Below are positions 11,348 through 62,745 of a stretch of 64,000 bases of DNA, one piece after another. A program made the position numbers and the translations under genes. This stretch comes from an uncultured Alphaproteobacteria bacterium (GTDB taxonomy: Bacteria > Pseudomonadota > Alphaproteobacteria > RF32 > CAG-239). The DNA lies in the NCBI GenBank assembly GCA_964017825.1, contig CAXHMA010000001.1:83928-147927 (forward strand), given 5' to 3'. The stretch's first letter is position 1; every line of letters starts with the position of its first letter. The notes under the pieces were generated by a model. It made no database searches. It was not told where the DNA came from and saw only the letters and a program-made list of their open reading frames with translations.

Positions 11348-12037
11348 ATGAAAAAGTTTATTCTTGCCGTCATCGTCGGACTTTTCTGCCTCATTGCACC
11401 GCTTATCGCCGAAACGTCATATCCGGCGCTAACCGGCCATGTCGTTGACGAAGCCAATATCCTCACCCCGCAAACCAAAGCCGAATTGGAAGCCCTGCTT
11501 TCCGCAGACTCTGACAATCAGGTTGTCGTCGCCGTCTTAAATGACCTGCGCGGCAGAGACGGGCGCGAATACGGCGTTGATTTGGCGCGCCGGTGGCAGC
11601 TCGGACAAAAAGGCAAAGACAACGGCGCGCTGATTTTGCTGGCAATAAAAGACCGTTACGTCGGCATAGAAGTCGGCTACGGACTGGAAAGCATTTTAAC
11701 CGACAGTATAAGCGGTAGAATTTTACAATACGAAATTCTTCCGCCCATACAACAAAATCAGGATTATAACCAAGCCATGCTCAACGGCGCCAAAGCGGTC
11801 ATGACGGTTATTTCCGGCGGAAAAATCGCGACACCTGCCGAAGAAGATGATAAGATTAATGCCCTCATCACCGCGCTCTTTTTGCTCCTGATGCTTTATG
11901 CCATGTCCAAAGGCGGCGGCGGCATATTCCCCGGCGGCGGTTTCGGAGGTGGCTTCGGAGGATTTGGCGGCAGAGGCGGCGGTTTCTTCGGCGGCGGCGG
12001 AAGCTTCGGTGGCGGCGGTGCCGGACGCAGATTTTAA
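11348..12037 (+). CDS. TPM-domain (YgcG-like) membrane protein with Gly-rich C-terminal tail.
   Basis: Signal/TM, TPM domain motifs, TM, then GGGFGGGFGG tail; typical LemA-TPM pairing. Confidence 0.7.
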   Translation: MKKFILAVIVGLFCLIAPLIAETSYPALTGHVVDEANILTPQTKAELEALLSADSDNQVVVAVLNDLRGRDGREYGVDLARRWQLGQKGKDNGALILLAIKDRYVGIEVGYGLESILTDSISGRILQYEILPPIQQNQDYNQAMLNGAKAVMTVISGGKIATPAEEDDKINALITALFLLLMLYAMSKGGGGIFPGGGFGGGFGGFGGRGGGFFGGGGSFGGGGAGRRF

Positions 12038-15921: not shown

Positions 15922-16197
15922 TTACTCCTCTTTCATATCTTCTAAACGCACCACAAGCCGCTTATTATAATATTTCAGTAACTCAGCTACGGCAAACCAG
16001 TTGAATTTGCGGCGCGCCATTTCCACCATTTCAATCTTATATGGCGGCACACCGATTTTTGCGCTCAACTCTTGCGATGACGCCCGCTTTTTCATCCGTT
16101 CGTTCAGCAAAAGCGTACCTATTTGGCGTTTGACATCATTACATAATATATCGCCGTTAAGGATATACTTTTTTTCTTCTTCTAATGTTTGAAACAT
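15922..16197 (-). CDS. Small XRE-type helix-turn-helix protein (91 aa), paralog of 40686..41009.
   Basis: HTH segment LSAKIGVPPYKIEMVE; AGGAG RBS; paralogous gene 25 kb away with the same upstream noncoding module. Confidence 0.55.
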   Translation of the reverse strand: MFQTLEEEKKYILNGDILCNDVKRQIGTLLLNERMKKRASSQELSAKIGVPPYKIEMVEMARRKFNWFAVAELLKYYNKRLVVRLEDMKEE

Positions 16198-16427
16198 GAT
16201 TTTTTACTCCTTGTTAAATTAAAACAAAAGGCGCTTAAAAGCGCCAGGGAGTTCACAAATCACAAAGCTATGACTCTCTTGGCCTTCAATATATAGCCAA
16301 GAGCTCCCTGACTTACATCAAGGAAAATGCTTTGAGAGCCTGTGACAGCCCTGACGGTGTCTCCACCGACAAAAGAAGTATAAAAGAGAATTTATAAAAG
16401 TAAAGTTAATTTTTTTGTTGTGGTATC
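16198..16427 (-). repeat. Rep2 copy A: ~225-bp conserved structured noncoding module upstream of HTH gene (about 90% identical to 41011..41235).
   Basis: Near-identical sequence at both loci; contains GC hairpin + T-run 20 nt before RBS, nested inverted repeats (CTCTTGGC...GCCAAGAG, CAGGGAGCTC...GAACTCCCTG). Confidence 0.7.
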
Positions 16428-16442
16428 GCGCCGTTTTTTTAG

Positions 16443-16560
16443 AGGAGAGAAATTTTGTGAGTGAGCCTGAAATGTCCGCCAAGGGAGGGAAGTGTACATA
16501 AAAGTACATGACCCGACCGAAGTGCGGCTTCCATCCACAAATTAGTTCACAATAATTTGA
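16443..16560 (+). repeat. Rep1 copy A (dispersed ~110-bp stem-loop repeat, core GTGTACATAAAAGTACATG, tail TTCCATCCACAAATTAGTTCACAA).
   Basis: Shares head module GAGAAATTTTG[C/T]GAGTGAGCCTGAAAT, core and tail with five other copies in the window. Confidence 0.75.
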
Positions 16561-16581
16561 GATAGACATCGATGGGTTCAA

Positions 16582-16632
16582 GGGCGCTTAAAATTTTAGT
16601 GTACACAATAGTACATGAATTTTAAGCGTCCC
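16582..16632 (-). terminator. Long perfect hairpin (14-bp stem) 3' of glycosyltransferase gene; loop carries GTACAC/GTACATG like Rep1 core.
   Basis: GGGCGCTTAAAATT ... AATTTTAAGCGTCCC inverted repeat. Confidence 0.4.
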
Positions 16633-16659
16633 GCAGAAACCGCGCTGGATGCTCAAATT

Positions 16660-22295: not shown

Positions 22296-22505
22296 ATCGC
22301 CCCGTTACAGGAGCGATTTTGCCCACCCTTAAAGGAGAGAAATTTTGCGAGTGAGACCAATCAGACTCACTCATTAAAAATTAAAGGAGGGAAATTTTGC
22401 GAAATAATCGCAGATGTCCTGCCCTAAAGCGCAGCGTACATAGAGGTACGAGAGCATTTAGGGACAGGCCTCCATCTGCGAATTAGTTCACAACAATTTA
22501 CCCCT
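22296..22505 (+). repeat. Rep1 copy B (with duplicated head modules) abutting adhE stop codon.
   Basis: GGAGAGAAATTTTGCGAGTGAG, GGAGGGAAATTTTGCGAAATAATCGCAGATGTCCTG, core GCGTACATAGAGGTAC, tail CCTCCATCTGCGAATTAGTTCACAA. Confidence 0.75.
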
Positions 22506-25254: not shown

Positions 25255-25329
25255 TTATATTTTAAAATCAAGGGCATGGAAAATTGCATCCCGGCCAATC
25301 AACAAAACGATAAGGCATAATTTTTTCAT
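25255..25329 (-). pseudogene. Remnant 5' cassette (24 aa: MKKLCLIVLLIGRD...) of the secreted-paralog family, ATGA-overlapping the stop of 25326..26087.
   Basis: Nucleotide string AAGGCATAATTTTTTCAT identical to the starts of three upstream paralogs. Confidence 0.4.
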
Positions 25330-26087
25330 GGTTCCCTGTTTTCTCCGTATTTGGCCGCCGCTTCGTTTAAAAGGGTGTCTGCGGCATGTTCCAGCAACAC
25401 ATTGGTTTTGAATTTGACTGTATATTCTCTAAGCTGATATTCCGGATTCAGATATGAATAATACTTTTTTGTTTCATCTGCCATTCTGACGAAAGCTTCT
25501 GTTACCTCTGCTGCTTTATCAGGGTAAAATTGCGTTGCGGCCGTATCAATAATTTCATAAACACACCGCTCGTAACCATCGGCATATGCTCTTTCCGCCA
25601 CATGAATTGCCTTGATGTTGCCGTCATCATCTTTCAGTTCCGAACGATAGGGGACAAAATCGCCGCACTGTTCCAATTTTTGCCGCAGTGCATTAACTGC
25701 TTCTATTCCATATGGATGTTCGGCATCTAAATATTCTTTGACTTCGGTTCGCGAAAAATCAGCACATTGAACAATGTAACCAAGATTTCGGTATATTTCA
25801 GCCTTGTCAGTCGGTATGTAAATATAAGCGATATCCGTCTCCAAGCCGTTAATATATATGAGCCTTTCCTGTATTTTATCATCGGCAATCGCCTTGACCG
25901 AAGCCGGCGCTATTTTACGCGCTTTGTTATCGCCCTGACACGTCGGACAATAATGTATCACCTCTTTGGCATTCTGTAACAGTTTGACGGCGTTTTCAGC
26001 AATGTCTGCCGTATTGTAAACGCAGATATCGGCATGCGCCGTTATCGCAGCCAAACACAGCAAAACAATAAGGCATAATTTTTTCAT
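25326..26087 (-). CDS. Secreted Cys-containing hypothetical protein (253 aa) sharing only its signal peptide with neighbours.
   Basis: Signal peptide MKKLCLIVLLCLAAITAHA; ATG start. Confidence 0.6.
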   Translation of the reverse strand: MKKLCLIVLLCLAAITAHADICVYNTADIAENAVKLLQNAKEVIHYCPTCQGDNKARKIAPASVKAIADDKIQERLIYINGLETDIAYIYIPTDKAEIYRNLGYIVQCADFSRTEVKEYLDAEHPYGIEAVNALRQKLEQCGDFVPYRSELKDDDGNIKAIHVAERAYADGYERCVYEIIDTAATQFYPDKAAEVTEAFVRMADETKKYYSYLNPEYQLREYTVKFKTNVLLEHAADTLLNEAAAKYGENREP

Positions 26088-26090
26088 GAT

Positions 26091-27014
26091 TTACTCCTCA
26101 TTTAAATCACATTTGAGGCGGTTTTGTTTTTCAAAACAATCTTTATGTACGAGATATAAATCTTTTTTATTGAAATAGTCTATATAAAGAGCATAAAAAT
26201 CATTCGGGTTAAAAGTTATTTGATGAATCAATTTGTTACGGCGGTCTAAATTAAATTCAGTATAAGGCTTTCCGTCTTTGCCGATAATCACAGAACCGTC
26301 AGCTTTAAATTCAAACGAAGCCCTGCCGCATGTAAGCTTAGGATTATCTTTCAGCCGATAATAATTCTCCGGCAATGTGCTTCCTTCCTCATATGAATGC
26401 AGTTCAATAAATCCTTTCCCTAAATCCTCATAGCAGTTTAGTTCAACGACGTTAAACTCGGGAAAGACAACCTTATCTTCATCAGCCAATATCAGTTCGT
26501 AACTGGTTTCCTCCGGTATATCCGGCATTTTATAATCATAACGGCAGTAGCTTCGGTCAGCCCCTTCATAAGCGCATCCGCGCACAAAAATTTTGCCGTC
26601 TTTTATGCCGACGGAATCATATATGCCGTCAGCTTCTCGACCGAACGGGAATAAATTGCCTAAGTATTTTTTCCCTGCATACAGCTGTACGGCCAATTTA
26701 TAGCTATATGGATATGACTGCATAAACACTGGTGTAAATTTCATTTTATATTCAACACCGTCAATAACGCAGCTTTCTTCGCGCGGTATTGGTTTTGTTT
26801 GAGTTGTTGTGACGTTATATTCGTATAATCCGTGTTTTTGTGCTCTCTGTGCCCAATCCTTATCTTCCGGTTCGGCAAAAAAATCTTTCATATCCGTACG
26901 GAATTCTTTTACATTTGGCAGACAGCTTGTTTTGTATGTATATTCATAATAACTTGTCGCATGTGCCGTTATCGCAACCAGACACAGCAATATTAAAAGG
27001 CATAATTTTTTCAT
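26091..27014 (-). CDS. Secreted Cys-rich hypothetical protein, tandem paralog A (307 aa).
   Basis: ~70% aa identity to 27014..27949; signal peptide MKKLCLLILLCLVAITAHA; start ATG overlaps upstream stop (TGATG). Confidence 0.65.
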   Translation of the reverse strand: MKKLCLLILLCLVAITAHATSYYEYTYKTSCLPNVKEFRTDMKDFFAEPEDKDWAQRAQKHGLYEYNVTTTQTKPIPREESCVIDGVEYKMKFTPVFMQSYPYSYKLAVQLYAGKKYLGNLFPFGREADGIYDSVGIKDGKIFVRGCAYEGADRSYCRYDYKMPDIPEETSYELILADEDKVVFPEFNVVELNCYEDLGKGFIELHSYEEGSTLPENYYRLKDNPKLTCGRASFEFKADGSVIIGKDGKPYTEFNLDRRNKLIHQITFNPNDFYALYIDYFNKKDLYLVHKDCFEKQNRLKCDLNEE

Positions 27015-27949
27015 CAATTTATCTCCTTAAACATATTGCAGCCGGAGCATTCTTCCTTTTCAGAGCAAAATCTGCTGTTCGAATACAGTTCCTTTTTATC
27101 AAAATATTTTATATAAAAACCCGCAAGCAAACTCGCATCAAAAGCTATTTGATAAATCTGTTTGTTACAGAGTGCCGGATTAAAGTCAGCATACGTTTTT
27201 TCATCTTTGCTGACGATGACCGAACCGTCAGCTTTAAATTTTATGGAAGCCCTGCCGCATGTAAGCTTAGGATTATCTTTCAATCGATAATAATTTTCCG
27301 GCAACTCGCTTTCTTCCTTATAAGAACGCAGCTCAACAAATCCTTTTTCCAAGTCTTCATAGCAGTTCAATTCAACGATGTTAAATTCCGGAAAGACAAC
27401 CTTGTTTTTATCAGCCAATATCAATTCATAACTGGTTTCTTCAGGCATATCCAACTCTTTATAATCATAAAGGCAATAACTTATATTGGTTGCCTCGTAA
27501 ATACAACCTCGCACAAAAATTTTGCCGTCTTTTATGCCGACGGAATCGTAGCCGTCATCATAATCCGCACCAAACGGAAAAAGGATGCCCCTATATTTTT
27601 TTCCGGCGTAAAGCTGCACAGCCGTCTCATGACGGCCATAATATTCCCGAACAAGTATAGGAATAAATTTCATTCTATATTCAACACCGTCTATGGTGCA
27701 GCTTTCTTCCCTCGGCAGCGGCTTTTCTTCATATGTATCCACATTGAGCCTGTATAATCCGTGTTTTTCAGCTTTTTGTAACCAATCTGCATCATCCCGA
27801 ACATCAAAAAAAACTTTTCTGTCTGCACGGAATTCTTTTACATTCGGCAAACAGCTTGTTTTATATGTATATTCATAATAACTTGTCGCATGTGCCTTTT
27901 TGGCAAACGCAGCCAAACACAGCAATATTAAAAGGCATAATTTTTTCAT
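27014..27949 (-). CDS. Secreted Cys-rich hypothetical protein, tandem paralog B (311 aa).
   Basis: Paralog of 26091..27014; same signal-peptide cassette. Confidence 0.65.
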   Translation of the reverse strand: MKKLCLLILLCLAAFAKKAHATSYYEYTYKTSCLPNVKEFRADRKVFFDVRDDADWLQKAEKHGLYRLNVDTYEEKPLPREESCTIDGVEYRMKFIPILVREYYGRHETAVQLYAGKKYRGILFPFGADYDDGYDSVGIKDGKIFVRGCIYEATNISYCLYDYKELDMPEETSYELILADKNKVVFPEFNIVELNCYEDLEKGFVELRSYKEESELPENYYRLKDNPKLTCGRASIKFKADGSVIVSKDEKTYADFNPALCNKQIYQIAFDASLLAGFYIKYFDKKELYSNSRFCSEKEECSGCNMFKEIN

Positions 27950-27952
27950 GAT

Positions 27953-28687
27953 TTACTCTTGTTCTAAATTAAAAACTTTTGCCGTTTCGTTCATGTACCA
28001 TGCAACCACTTTTTTAATTTCAGTATAACGGAATGCGGCAATATAATCCTCAACGACGGTGCCGTTGTCATAATTTTCCGTCGGGGTATATATATCCCGC
28101 AGCAGAGTTTCATATGCAGTCAAATAATTATCAAAATTTTTTTTATATTTATCTGCGTTATCGAGATGGCAGTTTTTAAACAATGAAGACAGTGTTTGCA
28201 AATAACATTCTTCCGCTTCTGTAAGATTACTGTTTTGTACATTGCCGTATAGTTCTTCGCATTGCTGATATCGTTTCTGCGTCTGCATAAATTTATCACG
28301 CATGGAAATATATATTTTATCAGAACCTATTTCTTTCAAAAGACGATTATCATCCGTTTTGCAACCGATTATCAGTCCTAAATTTTGATATGTTCCGGAT
28401 ATTTCAGAATAAACAAAGAAATCCGTTGCCGCATAACTGTTGTCTTTTATGCTGAAACGTCCGAACTCCAAACTGTTTTCATCTGTTGTGAAATCAATAT
28501 CGGCAAAAGAAATCTCCTGCGGTTTAGTGTTTTCAAACAGCAGAATTTCTTTTGCGGATGATAAAACATTTTCTGCTTTTTCCATTTCCTCAACGCTGAG
28601 GGCATCGCATCCGCAATAATCAGCCCGAGCCATGTATATAGGAAACAGCATTAAAACAGAGATAAAGATTAAAATTTTATTTTTCAT
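27953..28687 (-). CDS. Secreted Cys-containing hypothetical protein (244 aa).
   Basis: Signal peptide MKNKILIFISVLMLFPIYMARA; operonic with neighbours. Confidence 0.55.
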   Translation of the reverse strand: MKNKILIFISVLMLFPIYMARADYCGCDALSVEEMEKAENVLSSAKEILLFENTKPQEISFADIDFTTDENSLEFGRFSIKDNSYAATDFFVYSEISGTYQNLGLIIGCKTDDNRLLKEIGSDKIYISMRDKFMQTQKRYQQCEELYGNVQNSNLTEAEECYLQTLSSLFKNCHLDNADKYKKNFDNYLTAYETLLRDIYTPTENYDNGTVVEDYIAAFRYTEIKKVVAWYMNETAKVFNLEQE

Positions 28688-30669: not shown

Positions 30670-30893
30670 CAGAAATTTTGCGAAGCAGCCGCGGGAGCCT
30701 TACCCGCGTTACGCCCCGTTACAGATGGGAAATTTTGCGAAATAACCGCGGGAACCCTGCCCCATTACAGGCGGAAAATTTTGGTAGTGAGCCTGAAATA
30801 TCCGCCAAAGGGCAGGAGTGTACATAAAGGTACATGACTGCCCTGCAGAGCGGCTTCCATTTCAGAACTCAATACCAAAATTTACCCCTGTAA
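30670..30893 (+). repeat. Rep1 copy C (three head modules + core) abutting pyk stop codon.
   Basis: GAAATTTTGCGAAGCAGCCGCGGG, GGGAAATTTTGCGAAATAACCGCGGG, GTGAGCCTGAAATATCCGCC, core GTGTACATAAAGGTACATG, tail GGCTTCCATTTC...AATTTACCCCTGTAA. Confidence 0.75.
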
Positions 30894-32790: not shown

Positions 32791-32834
32791 CTCTGTTACA
32801 TCAGCCTTTCTGCGTTCATAATTTTATATAAAAT

Positions 32835-32940
32835 GCGGAATTTTGCTTTAATATCGCGGGAGCCCTGCCGGGGAGGAGAGTACATTGAAGTACATGGCCC
32901 GACCGACGACAGGCCCCTCCCGCGAATTAATTTACAAAAT
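32835..32940 (+). repeat. Rep1 copy D, ends 8 nt before stop of permease gene.
   Basis: GGAATTTTGCTTTAATATCGCGGGAGCC, core GAGTACATTGAAGTACATG, tail CCCTCCCGCGAATTAATTTACAAAAT. Confidence 0.7.
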
Positions 32941-40509: not shown

Positions 40510-40685
40510 AAATCCAAAGTTAGCTTATTAAAACTTAAATTTCAAACTTTATTTTTATAAACTCTCCGTTTAAAATTCATTAAGAAAATCATTTAAATTA
40601 AAATATTTAGAATGTAAAAACCGCATATAACATCCTCGCGCAAAAAACCGCCCGCCGCCCTGCAATCAAACCGGCGGGCTTTTTG

Positions 40686-41009
40686 TTACTCAACAGCTTC
40701 GGTACTTGTCTCCGCTGGCGGCTCACTGCCGTATTTCAAACCCAGCGTCGGCGCATTCTCTAAACGAAGAGCCAGCGTCTTACCGTAAAAATCCAGCAAT
40801 ATCTCCACGGCTCCCCAGTGTGGCTTTTCTTTGGCGAGTTCCACCTCCTCAATCGTCCGTTCCGCCAGCCCTGTCTTGTCGCTGACCAACGTCAACCGCA
40901 GCCGACGCCGTTGCCGCTCTGCAAACAACGCCTGCCCGACCAGCTGACGCATATGCCGACAGCAAATCTCGCCGTTGCGCATAAAGTTACTAAATTCCTC
41001 ACTATTCAT
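40686..41009 (-). CDS. Small XRE-type helix-turn-helix protein (107 aa), paralog of 15922..16197.
   Basis: HTH LVSDKTGLAERTIEEVE; same upstream Rep2 module. Confidence 0.55.
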   Translation of the reverse strand: MNSEEFSNFMRNGEICCRHMRQLVGQALFAERQRRRLRLTLVSDKTGLAERTIEEVELAKEKPHWGAVEILLDFYGKTLALRLENAPTLGLKYGSEPPAETSTEAVE

Positions 41010-41010
41010 G

Positions 41011-41235
41011 ATTTTTTACTCCTTGTTTAAGTTAAAACAAAAGGCGCTTAAAAGCGCCAGGGAGTTCAGAAATCACCAAAATATGACTCTCTTAGCCTTC
41101 AATATATAGCCAAGAGCTCCCTGACTTATTATCAAGGAAAAATTATTTTGGAGAGCCTCTGACAGCCCTGACGGTGTCTCCACCGACAAAAGGAAGTATA
41201 AGGGAAGAATTATAAAAGTAAAGTTAATTTTTACT
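41011..41235 (-). repeat. Rep2 copy B (conserved structured upstream module of HTH gene).
   Basis: About 90% identical to 16198..16427 including GGCGCTTTTAAGCGCC hairpin + T-run and nested inverted repeats. Confidence 0.7.
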
Positions 41236-41517
41236 CTACGCCAAAAGACCAAAAGTAGAACAAATTTCTTGACAATAAAACCAAAGTTTTATATAACAAA
41301 AAAGCCTTGACGCGGCAACGTCTCGGCTTTTACTAACTACGGAAAGGAGTTGAACTCCCAACTTCCTACCTGATGTTAGGAAGTATAGCATAAAAATAAT
41401 AAAAGTCAACAGCTTTTTATTTTTATGTGGTAGTCAGCGTCTTTCCCAACCGCCCAAACGGGCTGAAAGACGGCCGCAACAAAAAGTGCTATAATGCACT
41501 TTTTATAAGGAGACGCA

Positions 41518-41652
41518 ATGAGGCTCAGCTTTGTGAACAAGGCGACAGCCGAAGTGAAACAAAGCGCTTGCCGGAATTGGATGTTTGATACAGTCAAAGT
41601 TTTAAGCATTCTGATTTTGATGCTTAAAATCATCATTGTCATTATAAGATAA
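41518..41652 (+). CDS. Candidate small hydrophobic peptide (44 aa: MRLSFVNKATAEVKQSACRNWMFDTVKVLSILILMLKIIIVIIR), type-I-toxin-like.
   Basis: TATAAT at 41490, AAGGAG RBS 7 nt before ATG, intrinsic terminator 41660..41694 (GGCGGAGCTTGTCAACTCCGCC+T-run). Confidence 0.35.
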   Translation: MRLSFVNKATAEVKQSACRNWMFDTVKVLSILILMLKIIIVIIR

Positions 41653-41754
41653 CTGATGAGGCGGAGCTTGTCAACTCCGCCCTTTGATTTTTACTCTGCC
41701 ACATCTCTCACTCTGACGGATTGTTAGGCGAGAAAGTGCTGTGCTGAAAGCAAA

Positions 41755-41940
41755 AGTCCCCTCCCAAACCGCAGCGTACATTTTAAAGGCAACAAGTTGC
41801 CCGTGAGCCGGCCGAAGTCAGGCCTCGTATTGTGCTGCAAATTGCGAAATAGCCGCGGATGTCCCCCGAGGAGCACGAATGTACATAGAAGTACATGACG
41901 CGACGAAGAGGGGCTTCCATCCGCAAGCTAGTTCACAATT
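41755..41940 (+). repeat. Rep1 copy E (1.5 units) abutting grpE stop codon.
   Basis: CCGCAGCGTACAT partial unit then AAATTGCGAAATAGCCGCGGATGTCC, core GAATGTACATAGAAGTACATG, tail GGCTTCCATCCGCAAGCTAGTTCACAA. Confidence 0.75.
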
Positions 41941-42480
41941 TTATCGTGCAACAACGACCATTGCTTCGCGAAGAATGCGGTCATGTATGGTATACCCCGC
42001 CTGTAATTCGGCTAAAATGGTACCGGGTTCGGCTTTTTTGTCTTCCACTTCTTGGACGACGCGTTCAAAGTTGGGGTCAAATATCTCTCCGATATGATTG
42101 AAACGTTTGATGCCGAATTTTTCAAACACTTTGGTTAATTCGTTTTGTGTCAGCTCCACGCCTTTGAGCAGGTCGGCGCACGCCTGTTCGTTGCCGGACA
42201 TGGCGGTAACCGCGCGCTCCAGATTGTCGGCGACACCTAGTAGCTCTTTGGCAAAAGATGAAATGGCAAATTTAATTGTTTTTTCGGTTTCCTGCTGCAC
42301 GCGTTTTTTCATGTTATCCATTTCGGCATACAGGCGGAGATAGTCGTCTCTAAGCTTATTATATTCTTCTATGCTTTTGGTTTCTTCCGCAGCGTCCTCT
42401 TCGGCTTCAGCGCAAACTTCTTCCTCTGCCGGCAGTTCGTCCTCGGGATTATTTTTCAACTCTTCGTTTTCAGTGCTCAT
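41941..42480 (-). CDS. grpE: Nucleotide exchange factor GrpE.
   Basis: Acidic N-tail, LRLYAEMDNMKKR, C-terminal beta domain. Confidence 0.9.
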   Translation of the reverse strand: MSTENEELKNNPEDELPAEEEVCAEAEEDAAEETKSIEEYNKLRDDYLRLYAEMDNMKKRVQQETEKTIKFAISSFAKELLGVADNLERAVTAMSGNEQACADLLKGVELTQNELTKVFEKFGIKRFNHIGEIFDPNFERVVQEVEDKKAEPGTILAELQAGYTIHDRILREAMVVVAR

Positions 42481-42573: not shown

Positions 42574-42945
42574 CTACCTGCCGAGCAAATGATGTTTATG
42601 ATGCGGCCCCCATATGTCATAAGCCAAACGTGCGGCAGCCGCTCCGCTCAAAAAATATATAAAGTTCTGCATAACGTCGCGTAAATATGAATGGCAGCAA
42701 TTCTCTCTTTGCGCCTGCTTCCATACCGCATATTTATATGCCGGCGAAACAACAACAGGCGCCCGGACAGGCTGTGGCGCCTCATGCCAAGCAGGCAAAG
42801 CAGAAATAACTCTCACCTCTTCGACTTCATCCTTTGCTGCCTCATACCCCGCCGGTGCTGTCGTAATCATCTCCATATAACTGTTGGCAAACGCCTGCGC
42901 GGGCAACAGCAAAACTGTCAACATAAACAAAGTCCGCATACGCAT
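42574..42945 (-). CDS. Secreted hypothetical protein with His-rich C-terminus (…GPHHKHHLLGR).
   Basis: Signal peptide MRMRTLFMLTVLLLPAQAFA; overlaps upstream gene start/stop. Confidence 0.45.
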   Translation of the reverse strand: MRMRTLFMLTVLLLPAQAFANSYMEMITTAPAGYEAAKDEVEEVRVISALPAWHEAPQPVRAPVVVSPAYKYAVWKQAQRENCCHSYLRDVMQNFIYFLSGAAAARLAYDIWGPHHKHHLLGR

Positions 42946-43349
42946 TACCACCGGTGATGCCACGGACGCCCCCAACGATGCGGACGCCAACCCCGTCTGT
43001 GATGATGGTGATGATAGCCGCCGTAAATCAGTCCGCCGACAACCGCCGTCGTTACCCCCGCTGCCAACGCGGCATTGGTCACATCCCTGTCGTAATAATA
43101 ACTGTTTTGAATAACAGGCGATTCTCTGACCACAGTCATCGGCGGCACCACAACCGTCGTCGGTGCTGTTGTAGTGGTAGTTGTCGATGTGGTTTTAACC
43201 GCTGTCGGTGCCGGCGTATCAAACGTGGAAGGAACGGTAAACATCTGACGTACCACGCGCCCCTCGCCGTCTATCACCACAATAGATTCAGCCTGAACAT
43301 TACCGGCCGCCAGCAGGCAAAGCCCGAACAAATAAATCACTTTTCTCAT
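42945..43349 (-). CDS. Secreted protein with Thr-rich linker, glycine-zipper segment and His/Arg/Trp-rich tail (GGYHHHHHRRGWRPHRWGRPWHHRW).
   Basis: Signal peptide MRKVIYLFGLCLLAAGNVQA; AALAAGVTTAVVGGLIYGG glycine zipper. Confidence 0.5.
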   Translation of the reverse strand: MRKVIYLFGLCLLAAGNVQAESIVVIDGEGRVVRQMFTVPSTFDTPAPTAVKTTSTTTTTTAPTTVVVPPMTVVRESPVIQNSYYYDRDVTNAALAAGVTTAVVGGLIYGGYHHHHHRRGWRPHRWGRPWHHRW

Positions 43350-43615
43350 TTTAACCTCGCTTTTAATTAACATACATACTAATATGTATATATTAATTTA
43401 TTTTGCAAGCACTTTTTTCAAAAATATACACAAATTTTGAAAATCCGTTTTCCTGTAAAAAAAAATATTATTTTTATTATATAATATATATATTTCTTTT
43501 GGTTCTTTTCTTTTAGATACAGCGTCGGTTAAGCGTCGGTGTAAAAAGTATAGCGACGCTGAAACAGCGATAAAAAAACGGAGCCCGAAGCCCCGTTTTT
43601 CCGATACCGCCTTAA

Positions 43616-62597: not shown

Positions 62598-62745
62598 CAG
62601 TTCACAAAATTACATATCCACTAAAAAACTGCGGAATTTTGCGAAATAATCGCGGATGTCCTGCGAGGGAGGGGAGTGTACAAAAGGTACATGACCCGAC
62701 CGATGACAGGCTTCCACCCGCGAATTAGTTCACAAAATTACACTG
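62598..62745 (+). repeat. Rep1 copy F flanked by 16-bp direct repeats AGTTCACAAAATTACA; 3 nt from rplQ stop.
   Basis: GGAATTTTGCGAAATAATCGCGGATGTCCTG, core GTGTACAAAAGGTACATG, tail CAGGCTTCCACCCGCGAATTAGTTCACAA. Confidence 0.75.

Follow-up and report, generated by a model that had tools for sequence, protein, structure and literature searches.

Organization of the Locus

The window analyzed here is a stretch of 64,000 nucleotides from an uncultured alphaproteobacterium (assembly GCA_964017825.1, contig CAXHMA010000001.1), and its sequence is also present in the metagenome-assembled genome (MAG) GCA_965648045.1. The interval under study, positions 40686 to 41940, is composed of three juxtaposed units. 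These are a minus-strand gene for a small helix-turn-helix (HTH) protein with its leader, named Rep2; a cassette for a very short hydrophobic peptide; and a palindromic repeat, named Rep1. The peptide cassette is described as a candidate toxin-antitoxin-like locus of type I.

A first-pass annotation of the window had described the order HTH gene, Rep2, insert, Rep1, and a sister locus at 15922-16560 in which the insert is missing. All of the listed elements were found where it had placed them, and the sister locus does lack the insert. The Rep2 copies at 41010-41236 and 16198-16425 are 93% identical over 227/228 nucleotides. The Rep1 copies at 41828-41945 and 16439-16560 are 75% identical, and each folds as one long hairpin. 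A 31-nucleotide Rep2 core pattern matches the window twice against 0.00 matches expected, and nhmmer profiles run on the window return exactly two Rep2 copies and one cassette. The features of the interval are as follows.

40686-41009, minus strand: HTH2 gene, an open reading frame (ORF) of 107 amino acids for a predicted small XRE-type, HipB-like DNA-binding protein.
41033-41200, minus strand: Rep2, a structured RNA of ~165 nucleotides (fold z-score, covariation, and nhmmer, E = 4e-48).
41195-41222, minus strand: Rep2 promoter, TTTACT-N16-TATACT (promoter scan).
41269-41297, plus strand: predicted promoter of the peptide mRNA (P_tox), TTGACA-N17-TATAAC, predicted start at ~41304.
41298-41375, minus strand: candidate antitoxin small RNA (sRNA) of ~78 nucleotides, with the inner stem of its terminator at 41322-41309 and a U run at 41303-41298.
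41382-41409, minus strand: sRNA promoter, TTGACT-N16-TATACT with TG before the -10 hexamer (10/12 matches in the scan).
41435-41469, plus strand: anti-Shine-Dalgarno (anti-SD) sequence CAGCGUCUUUCC (41435-41446), a nested hairpin, and a vestigial Shine-Dalgarno (SD) sequence GAAAG (41465-41469), located by motif search, alignment, and folding.
~41470-41575, plus strand: insertion of ~106 nucleotides, present at this locus only.
41518-41652, plus strand: 44-amino-acid ORF, in which 21 insertion-derived codons are fused to the 23-amino-acid core ORF.
41581-41652, plus strand: core ORF MFDTVKVLSILILMLKIIIVIIR, 23 amino acids and a stop codon, a candidate membrane toxin.
41660-41692, plus strand: intrinsic terminator of the peptide mRNA (terminator scan).
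41733-41945: Rep1, comprising a partial unit (41733-41790) and a full unit (41828-41945) of an imperfect palindrome of ~105 nucleotides (repeat families D2, D3, and D11).

The Peptide Cassette and Its Relatives

Homologues of the cassette are present at four related loci: L002, L015 (three tandem copies, L015_m1 to L015_m3), L027 (one and a half copies), and L047 (part of a copy, at the locus edge). Their nhmmer E-values range from 1e-73 to 1e-100. L002 belongs to the same genome as the window and contains the same insert between Rep1-like DNA and Rep2. L015 and L027 come from deer-gut MAGs and contain a diverged cassette in the same place and the same orientation. Six copies from three genomes were aligned; overall identity is 58%, and the architecture is nonetheless kept.

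P_tox has the form TTGAC(A/T)-N17-TATAA(C/A/G), with both hexamers and the 17-nucleotide spacing present in 6/6 copies. It lies 210 nucleotides upstream of the TATAAT that had been proposed as the promoter of this unit. P_tox is divergent from the Rep2 promoter, and in the window the two -35 hexamers are 47 base pairs apart.

The opposite-strand promoter and sRNA that the first-pass annotation had suggested looking for do exist as sequence features. The promoter reads from 41409 to 41382, the RNA from ~41375 to 41298, and the terminator stem from 41322 to 41309. The sRNA promoter is conserved in all cassette copies as TTGAC(T/A)-N16/17-TATA(C/G)T, with TAATAC in L002, and the antisense sRNA is likewise conserved in the homologous cassettes of other genomes. 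The predicted sRNA is ~72-80 nucleotides long across the copies. In the window it is antisense to the first 72 nucleotides of the predicted peptide mRNA, and across copies this overlap is 67-74 nucleotides. It contains CAACUCCUUUCC at 41352-41341. The stem of its terminator shows compensatory changes among L002, L015 (three copies), L027, and L047. A promoter and terminator scan independently reports the promoter and terminator of the sRNA, together with the terminator of the mRNA.

Beyond these signals, the six copies keep a 5' hairpin, GGAAAGAAGTT, the anti-SD, the SD GGAAAGG, the ATG, an ORF of 20-23 codons, and the terminator. The anti-SD consensus is C(T/G)TCTTTCC. The canonical copies have the SD GGAAAGG placed 5-6 nucleotides before the ATG. 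The mRNA terminator is conserved in all cassette copies; the first-pass annotation had correctly noted it after the 44-amino-acid ORF, and the scan places it at 41660-41681 followed by a T run.

The encoded peptide is of two kinds. In L002 the core peptide is a stand-alone ORF of exactly 23 amino acids, identical in protein sequence to the window core, with two nucleotide differences that are both synonymous. In L015 and L027 the same position is occupied by a 20-amino-acid counterpart, MVKIITIIKIILELIIALLA, and by two variants of it differing by one or two residues. The 23- and 20-amino-acid types differ by a 9-nucleotide in-frame gap. Their grand average of hydropathy (GRAVY) is 2.1 and 2.4, respectively, with a net charge of +1 to +2. 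These values are within the range computed in the same way for four type I toxin sequences.

Two further candidates on the minus strand were set aside. A promoter-like site reading from 41674 to 41646 is not conserved in L015 or L027 and is probably fortuitous. A 78-amino-acid ORF at 41406-41642 has no family match, runs across the insertion private to the window, and lies antisense to the ORF that is conserved.

The Insertion in the Window Copy

The cassette in the window contains an insertion that is absent from L002, L015_m2, L015_m3, and L027, and no other copy of it was found in the related loci examined. It parts the ATG at 41581 from the ancestral SD (GAAAG, 41465-41469), leaving 111 nucleotides between the two, and this ATG is preceded directly by a poor SD. 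The insertion itself contains TGcTATAAT (41487-41495), AAGGAG (41507-41512), an ATG at 41518, and 21 in-frame codons. In this way it supplies a new SD, a new start codon, and possibly an extended -10 promoter, from which the 44-amino-acid ORF could be expressed. The region of the TATAAT is the loop of a 9-base-pair palindrome, AAAAAGTGC-TATAAT-GCACTTTTT. It has no -35 hexamer and is not conserved in any relative.

The first-pass annotation had taken the TATAAT, the AAGGAG, and the 44-amino-acid ORF as one unit resembling a type I toxin cassette. The signals are present, and they are confined to the locus-private insertion. The ORF does not hold as a unit, since only its C-terminal 23 codons are conserved and these form a separate ORF in the paralogous locus L002. 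The anatomy proposed is supported in kind, with the wrong ORF, promoter, and SD chosen as the conserved unit. The tail of 18 residues described as transmembrane-like is very hydrophobic and contains a lysine (K37 of the 44-amino-acid ORF); it is better termed a very hydrophobic stretch with a few charged residues. The ORF is annotated as a gene in GCA_965648045.1. Among 5.8 billion proteins searched for homologues, the 44-amino-acid sequence matches only itself.

A second cassette is interrupted at the same functional spot. L015_m1 contains an independent insertion of ~165 nucleotides, also between SD and ATG, that resembles a miniature inverted-repeat transposable element (MITE). The window insertion was considered as a relative of this element and rejected, as the two sequences are not homologous. 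Two unrelated insertions parting SD from ATG are what counter-selection against a toxic product would produce. Insertions also often inactivate chromosomal hok homologues (PMC8309996).

The MITE-like element has an A5-hairpin-T5 end and is found at L015 5858-6040 and in L035 and L045, with a related copy at L015 4655-4835. Besides interrupting the first tandem cassette of L015, it is inserted into three Rep2 copies of MAG RGIG8928, each time in the variable loop.

A Potential Shine-Dalgarno Switch in the Cassette Leader

Transcription from P_tox would yield an mRNA of ~390 nucleotides with a long leader, the first 72 nucleotides of which are fully antisense to the sRNA. The leader of the canonical copies (L002, L015, and L027) contains three elements that could form a switch. 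Element (a), GGAAAGAAGUUG, is in the part of the leader antisense to the sRNA and is the complement of the sRNA's own CAACUUCUUUCC. Element (b) is the anti-SD CAACUUCUUUCC, which could pair with either (a) or (c). Element (c) is the SD GGAAAGG(AGG), 5-6 nucleotides before the ATG of the very hydrophobic 20-23-amino-acid peptide. An sRNA covering (a) would free (b) to close a hairpin over the SD, and translation would be turned off. The sRNA-mRNA duplex may also serve as a substrate for RNase III. The peptide is a putative membrane-damaging toxin.

Folding predictions are compatible with such a switch, and the effect is small. In the minimum-free-energy folds of the free mRNA of L027, L015_m3, and L002, the anti-SD pairs with the upstream antisense segment. 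When this upstream segment is blocked, mimicking bound sRNA, a 10-base-pair hairpin closes over the SD in L027 and L015_m3, and in L002 the anti-SD pairs across the SD/AUG region.

The Rep2 Structured RNA

Rep2, which the first-pass annotation had listed as a dispersed repeat, is a well-supported, multi-copy structured RNA that is uncatalogued in Rfam. In order, it is composed of P1, a closing stem, P2, a junction with P3 and P4, an intrinsic terminator, and then the SD (AAGGAG) and ATG of the HTH gene. P1 is a hairpin with the loop AGAGA. The closing stem, AGGG/CCCU, is invariant, and P2 is a long, covarying helix. The junction is three-way and carries P3 (CCUUGAU/GUCAGGG) and P4, the loop of which, UAUAUAUUGAAG, is nearly invariant. 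The terminator, GGCGCUUUUAAGCGCC followed by UUUUGUUUU, reads from 41058 to 41034 with the stem-loop at 41058-41043 and the U tract at 41042-41034, and is kept in nearly all copies. The HTH SD (41024-41019) follows ~10 nucleotides downstream, and the ATG is at 41009. At the promoter position the relatives have TTGAC(T/A)-N16/17 followed by TATACT, TAAACT, or TATAGT.

The fold of Rep2 has a z-score of -6.4 against shuffled sequence. Aligning 31 distinct copies yields 45 consensus pairs; compensatory double changes occur in 21 of them, and 98.6% of cells form standard pairs. The covariation score is 0.415, compared with 0.05-0.10 when the partners are slid by 1-3 columns. In the shuffle test, 0/500 shuffles reach the observed value in four of five measures, and 1/500 does in the fifth. 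At the gathering threshold, Rfam 15 has no match to Rep2 in the window or in 16 related loci, and none to the sRNA in the window. A permissive search gave chance-level sub-threshold matches only (sRNA-Xcc1, fstAT, Histone3, and others), the best being sRNA-Xcc1 with 26.9 bits against a threshold of 53.

A scan of genome collections with the Rep2 core pattern found 38 loci in eight MAGs from mouse (MGBC isolate names), deer, and buffalo. Most of these MAGs are labelled Alphaproteobacteria and two are labelled Acetobacter sp.; some have 5-9 copies. A metagenome scan with a second, non-overlapping pattern added 27 copies and one chance match. Together this makes ~65 copies, and the MAGs and metagenome contigs that contain them are labelled Alphaproteobacteria and derive mostly from animal guts. 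The core pattern had no matches in the viral contigs scanned, and Rep2 strings had none in the searched part (200 of 408) of the supplementary files of Fremin & Bhatt 2021. Many contigs of the relatives break within or just upstream of Rep2, as expected of a multi-copy repeat.

A small HTH ORF or an evident pseudogene follows every Rep2 copy, except at L044, where Rep2 is an orphan, and at L034, where the sequence ends before the ORF. The orphan at L044 4115-4329 has no downstream HTH gene. The HTH genes 3' of intact Rep2 copies in L018, L022, L039, and L053/L060 have early stops or frameshifts. The RNA thus appears to outlive the protein gene. Across 630 locus pairs, median Rep2 identity is 80% at the nucleotide level, median HTH identity is 29% at the amino acid level, and the two are uncorrelated. 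The constraint on the leader therefore comes from a source other than the variable protein, and this difference in conservation points to a shared partner or ligand.

The proposed function of Rep2 is double. A sigma-70-type promoter (41222 to 41195) would drive the RNA, most transcripts would stop at the terminator as free structured RNA, and the HTH protein would be made only from transcripts reading through. Rep2 would then act both as an abundant RNA and as a leader that attenuates HTH expression. A second possible pairing, CAGGGAG/CUCCCUG, leaves the terminator intact.

A tiny ORF within Rep2, opening with a UUG in the P4 loop and closing with the UGA of GUGAUU, was considered and rejected. 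Its frame is broken by 1-nucleotide indels in L013, L020, L030, and L042. Four loci (L022, L023, L029, and L037) have ~85 extra nucleotides in the terminator loop and retain the stem, the U tract, and the HTH gene. The extra sequence may be an added domain or a tolerated small insertion. A 6S RNA gene (RF00013, 54.5 bits) is located at L013 6421-6578 on the plus strand, ~2.5 kb from a Rep2 copy; the 144 kb of related loci yielded no other Rfam family.

The HTH Gene and Its Protein

HTH2 is 38% identical to HTH1, the product of the sister locus (15922-16197). The Pfam family HTH_31 scores 24.2 bits on HTH2, under the threshold of 27, and 13.7 bits on HTH1. The couple_hipB profile gives a weak match (E = 0.007) below its curated cut-off. 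The AlphaFold model of HTH2 has a mean confidence (pLDDT) of 80.7. Its best matches in the PDB are HipB antitoxins and XRE regulators, with a target-normalized TM-score of ~0.8 and a root-mean-square deviation of 1.4-1.8 Å over ~63 residues. Protein searches found few relatives, all in MAGs or assemblies of uncultured Alphaproteobacteria. A third paralogue, 93% identical to HTH2, is on another contig of GCA_965648045.1 (L002).

No gene for a HipA-like kinase or other protein toxin adjoins HTH2, the neighbors of which are lptF, Rep2 with the cassette, and grpE. With a HipB-like fold and no kinase gene, the locus is not a HipBA-type (type II) toxin-antitoxin system.

The site upstream of lptF has an HTH2-type gene in the window and L003, and an HTH1-type gene (71% identical to HTH1) in L011. 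L015 and L027 have an identical HTH gene and terminator with differing Rep2 P2 helices. Both cases suggest that Rep2/HTH units exchange sequence by recombination or gene conversion.

Coupling of the Cassette to Rep2

The composite module suggested by the first-pass annotation has some basis in that several genomes have the cassette in physical linkage with Rep2 and the HTH gene. All cassette matches (9/9) in the ~450 kb examined, a sample centered on Rep2 loci and so biased for such adjacency, abut the Rep2 promoter or its remnant divergently. The cassettes adjoin three different HTH types. Their fixed position and orientation are not as expected of random placement in 8-kb loci. It is plausible, from the layout of the sequence, that the HTH protein controls both divergent promoters. 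In a search for an autoregulatory operator, co-evolution between the Rep2 promoter region and the HTH protein gave a Spearman coefficient of 0.01, with correlation in near-identical pairs only.

Interpretation of the Cassette

Type I toxin-antitoxin loci are recognized by a hydrophobic protein of fewer than 60 amino acids with a predicted membrane helix, and by an RNA gene antisense to the toxin mRNA (PMC8309996). The 23- and 20-amino-acid core ORFs encode small hydrophobic proteins, and the predicted 78-nucleotide sRNA is, in silico, such an antisense RNA. Judged from these sequence features, the cassette is most likely a new type I toxin-antitoxin-like family with a candidate toxin, repeatedly docked at the Rep2 promoter. 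The interval as a whole is probably best explained, with some reserve, as an HTH gene with its Rep2 leader, a type I toxin-antitoxin-like cassette altered by the 106-nucleotide insertion, and an unrelated Rep1. The window copy would then be either a toxin disabled by the insertion or a rewired long form, and L002 keeps the canonical arrangement. The long form could be made since the insertion restores an SD and an in-frame start, as with the 44- and 31-amino-acid toxic peptides that sprG1 encodes in one frame (PMC8309996).

Several observations weigh against this interpretation. Only two peptide sequence types exist, and the two synonymous changes say little, given a DNA identity of 97% between the window and L002 in this region. 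Searches of Pfam/NCBIfam with the 23-, 20-, and 44-amino-acid peptides gave no toxin family at E ≤ 10, the sole match being a spurious one to SNARE (E = 0.47). The -10 hexamer of P_tox, TATAAC, TATAAA, or TATAAG, is without the consensus final T, and it was absent from the output of the promoter scan. Folding predicts a modest shift in how accessible the SD is, the probability of being unpaired falling from 0.31 to 0.20 in L027. The SD hairpin of L015_m2 is closed even without sRNA, and for the copies of L015 and L027 every predicted state has a paired AUG. These last two results suggest a primary transcript that may be largely inert, as described for dinQ, where mutually exclusive leader structures and the AgrB antisense RNA have been shown experimentally to control the opening of the ribosome-binding site (PMC5066626). 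In the window the canonical SD no longer serves the ATG, so that the switch model does not apply there unchanged. For Rep2, no anti-terminator was found, nor did inspection show a conserved segment that could pair with one of the terminator strands; regulated read-through is thus only assumed. Finally, the cassette is present at only 5 of ~65 Rep2 loci, which makes it accessory to, rather than an obligatory component of, the Rep2/HTH unit.

The alternative that survives best is that the window cassette is a decaying remnant, in which the insertion disabled translation and the sRNA and promoters are relics or an orphan antitoxin cross-protecting against L002. It is held to be a possible, though not the preferred, explanation. 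The loss of the SD at its proper distance, the independent interruption of L015_m1, the similar fate of hok homologues (PMC8309996), and the intact paralogue in the same genome (L002) all agree with it. It is harder to reconcile with the strong SD and the in-frame ATG without a stop that the insertion restores, which are unlikely for 106 random nucleotides. Both promoters, the sRNA, the anti-SD hairpin with its compensated stem, and the terminator are also still intact.

A broader proposal, held with considerable doubt, is that Rep2 and the HTH gene form a new two-part RNA-protein module. In one form, Rep2 would be an orphan riboswitch or protein-sensing attenuator of radiating regulators; in the other, the module would be an RNA-based addiction or defense unit with a docked toxin-like cassette. 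For a riboswitch, Rep2 has a covariation-backed, aptamer-like fold; a tie to one metabolic or transport pathway was not found, and all copies precede the same small HTH family. If the second form were true, one divergent region would couple a membrane toxin, an antisense RNA, a structured RNA, and a repressor.

It is unlikely that the 44-amino-acid peptide is itself the toxin, translated from a short-leader mRNA that the TGcTATAAT promoter would drive and the terminator would end, and controlled by the sRNA acting in trans on the AAGGAG. This version has in its favor the intact ORF with AAGGAG 5 nucleotides before its ATG, the extended -10, and the terminator. The SD is mostly open in the short transcript (predicted probability of being unpaired, 0.61), the sRNA contains ACUCCUU, which is complementary to AAGGAGU, and the two sprG1 forms are a precedent for long and short peptides (PMC8309996). 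On the other side, the promoter, the SD, and the first 21 codons are in an insertion missing from every relative, the protein is unique in the protein search, and the TATAAT is a palindrome loop without a -35. The transcript would also lack the whole sRNA-complementary region, leaving only a generic SD pairing of 6-7 nucleotides.

It is similarly improbable that the antisense-controlled product of the cassette is a regulatory leader peptide or a small membrane protein that does no harm, perhaps belonging to the regulon of the HTH protein. The peptides have no match to known toxin families, and constant docking at the Rep2/HTH promoter could reflect co-regulation rather than addiction. Against this, a very short and extremely hydrophobic peptide, SD/AUG sequestration, and a cis-antisense sRNA fit type I loci, as do tandem amplification and repeated insertional disruption (PMC8309996, PMC5066626).

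That there is no peptide at all, and that the ORF is incidental to an overlapping pair of non-coding RNAs or a repeat-derived structured element, is very unlikely: strong hairpins do span the ORF region in both sequence types and sequence diversity is too low for a real test of nonsynonymous against synonymous substitution (dN/dS), but the ATG has a well-spaced SD, the 20-23 codons end just before the terminator, are uniformly hydrophobic, and are kept at ~58% identity, and the two cassette types differ by 9 nucleotides in frame.

If the cassette, as preferred here, is a working type I toxin-antitoxin system, it would add a new family of toxins, from an uncultured alphaproteobacterial lineage of the gut. 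No type I system from Alphaproteobacteria surfaced in a literature search, which was not exhaustive. The three-element SD switch is compact and directly testable in vitro. Recurrent docking at the Rep2 promoter offers a concrete, testable link of RNA-based and protein-based control.

Rep1 and Other Features of the Window

Rep1 is a REP/MITE-like (repetitive extragenic palindrome or MITE) intergenic palindromic repeat with no evident link to the cassette. It folds as a single long hairpin on either strand, with z-scores of -3.8 and -5.6 for the two best-preserved copies. The window contains at least six copies, and others are found in further genomes of the clade. Additional copies or fragments are intergenic, at 16580-16650, 22320-22500, 30670-30880, 32830-32940, and 62626-62742, sometimes with two or three units in a row.

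Positions 40642-40684, which separate the lptF promoter region from the stop codon of the HTH gene, hold a terminator-like hairpin usable on both strands. Its 8-base-pair GC stem (40650-40657/40672-40679) is flanked by an A run and a T run. This hairpin was read directly from the sequence, as its 14-nucleotide loop is beyond the loop limit of the terminator scan.

Elsewhere in the window, a tandem array of four paralogous genes (253, 308, 311, and 244 amino acids) occupies 25326-28687 on the minus strand. All four products begin with a hydrophobic segment resembling a signal peptide, and the region upstream of the genes is conserved (repeat families D1, D4, D6, D8, and D12). Two adjacent minus-strand ORFs of 138 and 142 amino acids at 42574-43373, by grpE, have no Pfam match, and one of them has a C-terminal tail rich in His, Arg, and Trp, GGYHHHHHRRGWRPHRWGRPWHHRW. 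A 42-nucleotide tandem repeat rich in GGC, GGA, and TTC at 11933-12016 would encode a low-complexity stretch rich in Gly and Phe if read in that frame. No tRNA or tmRNA gene was found in the window.

Comparison with Known Systems

Rep1 resembles REP/BIME, Correia, and RPE-type repeats in architecture: it is ~105 nucleotides long, imperfectly palindromic, intergenic, and present in several copies per 64 kb. It differs from them in that no Rep1-associated transposase was seen.

HTH2 is comparable to HipB/XRE repressors, with HipB antitoxins as the best structural matches of its model. It differs in having an extra long N-terminal helix, and all of its profile scores are below curated cut-offs.

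Rep2 shares with 5' leader RNAs and riboswitches a multi-helix fold and invariant junction and loop nucleotides, followed by a terminator, SD, and gene. Like ribosomal-protein leaders, it always precedes one gene family. Rep2 differs from these leaders in that no alternative anti-terminator pairing was found, it matches no Rfam family, and it occurs in 5-9 copies per genome. The order of promoter, structured RNA, terminator, and protein gene is also that of type III (toxIN-like) toxin-antitoxin loci, a likeness of architecture only. This order would yield an excess of RNA over protein. Rep2 differs from the type III RNAs in having one complex fold where those consist of short repeats in tandem, and its partner is a HipB-like DNA-binding domain with no sign of toxicity, not an endoribonuclease.

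The peptide cassette is compared with several type I families. The overlap of Sib is with the ORF of ibs, and that of SprF1 with the 3' end of sprG1; the cassette sRNA differs from both in overlapping the 5' leader. The cassette peptides, with GRAVY of 2.1-2.4, are close in length and hydrophobicity to the 19-amino-acid IbsC (2.4). The 44- and 31-amino-acid pair of sprG1 is a precedent for the 44- and 23-amino-acid pair of the window, with the difference that the window long form comes from an insertion at one locus and not from a conserved dual-start design.

The nearest type I systems combine an sRNA directed at the 5' UTR of the toxin with mRNA structure that sequesters the SD (dinQ/agrB, zorO/orzO, and tisB/istR-1), with hok/sok as the parallel for a cis-encoded layout. 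With these systems the cassette shares a very small hydrophobic peptide and a long structured leader hiding the SD, and a Pfam/NCBIfam search gave no sequence similarity to these families. As in hok, copies have been disrupted by insertions. The three tandem cassettes of L015 parallel the tandem duplication seen in zorO, a feature on which the discovery of ZorO drew (PMC8309996). As in dinQ/agrB, the leader contains elements with mutually exclusive pairings, and the sRNA is predicted to favor the closed form. AgrB, IstR-1, and OrzO are separate divergent genes with partial complementarity to their targets. The cassette differs from these systems in that its sRNA gene is wholly inside the toxin leader on the opposite strand, covering the extreme 5' end of the mRNA. 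It differs further in its setting, an uncultured gut alphaproteobacterial lineage in which it is docked at the promoter of a structured RNA and an HTH gene.

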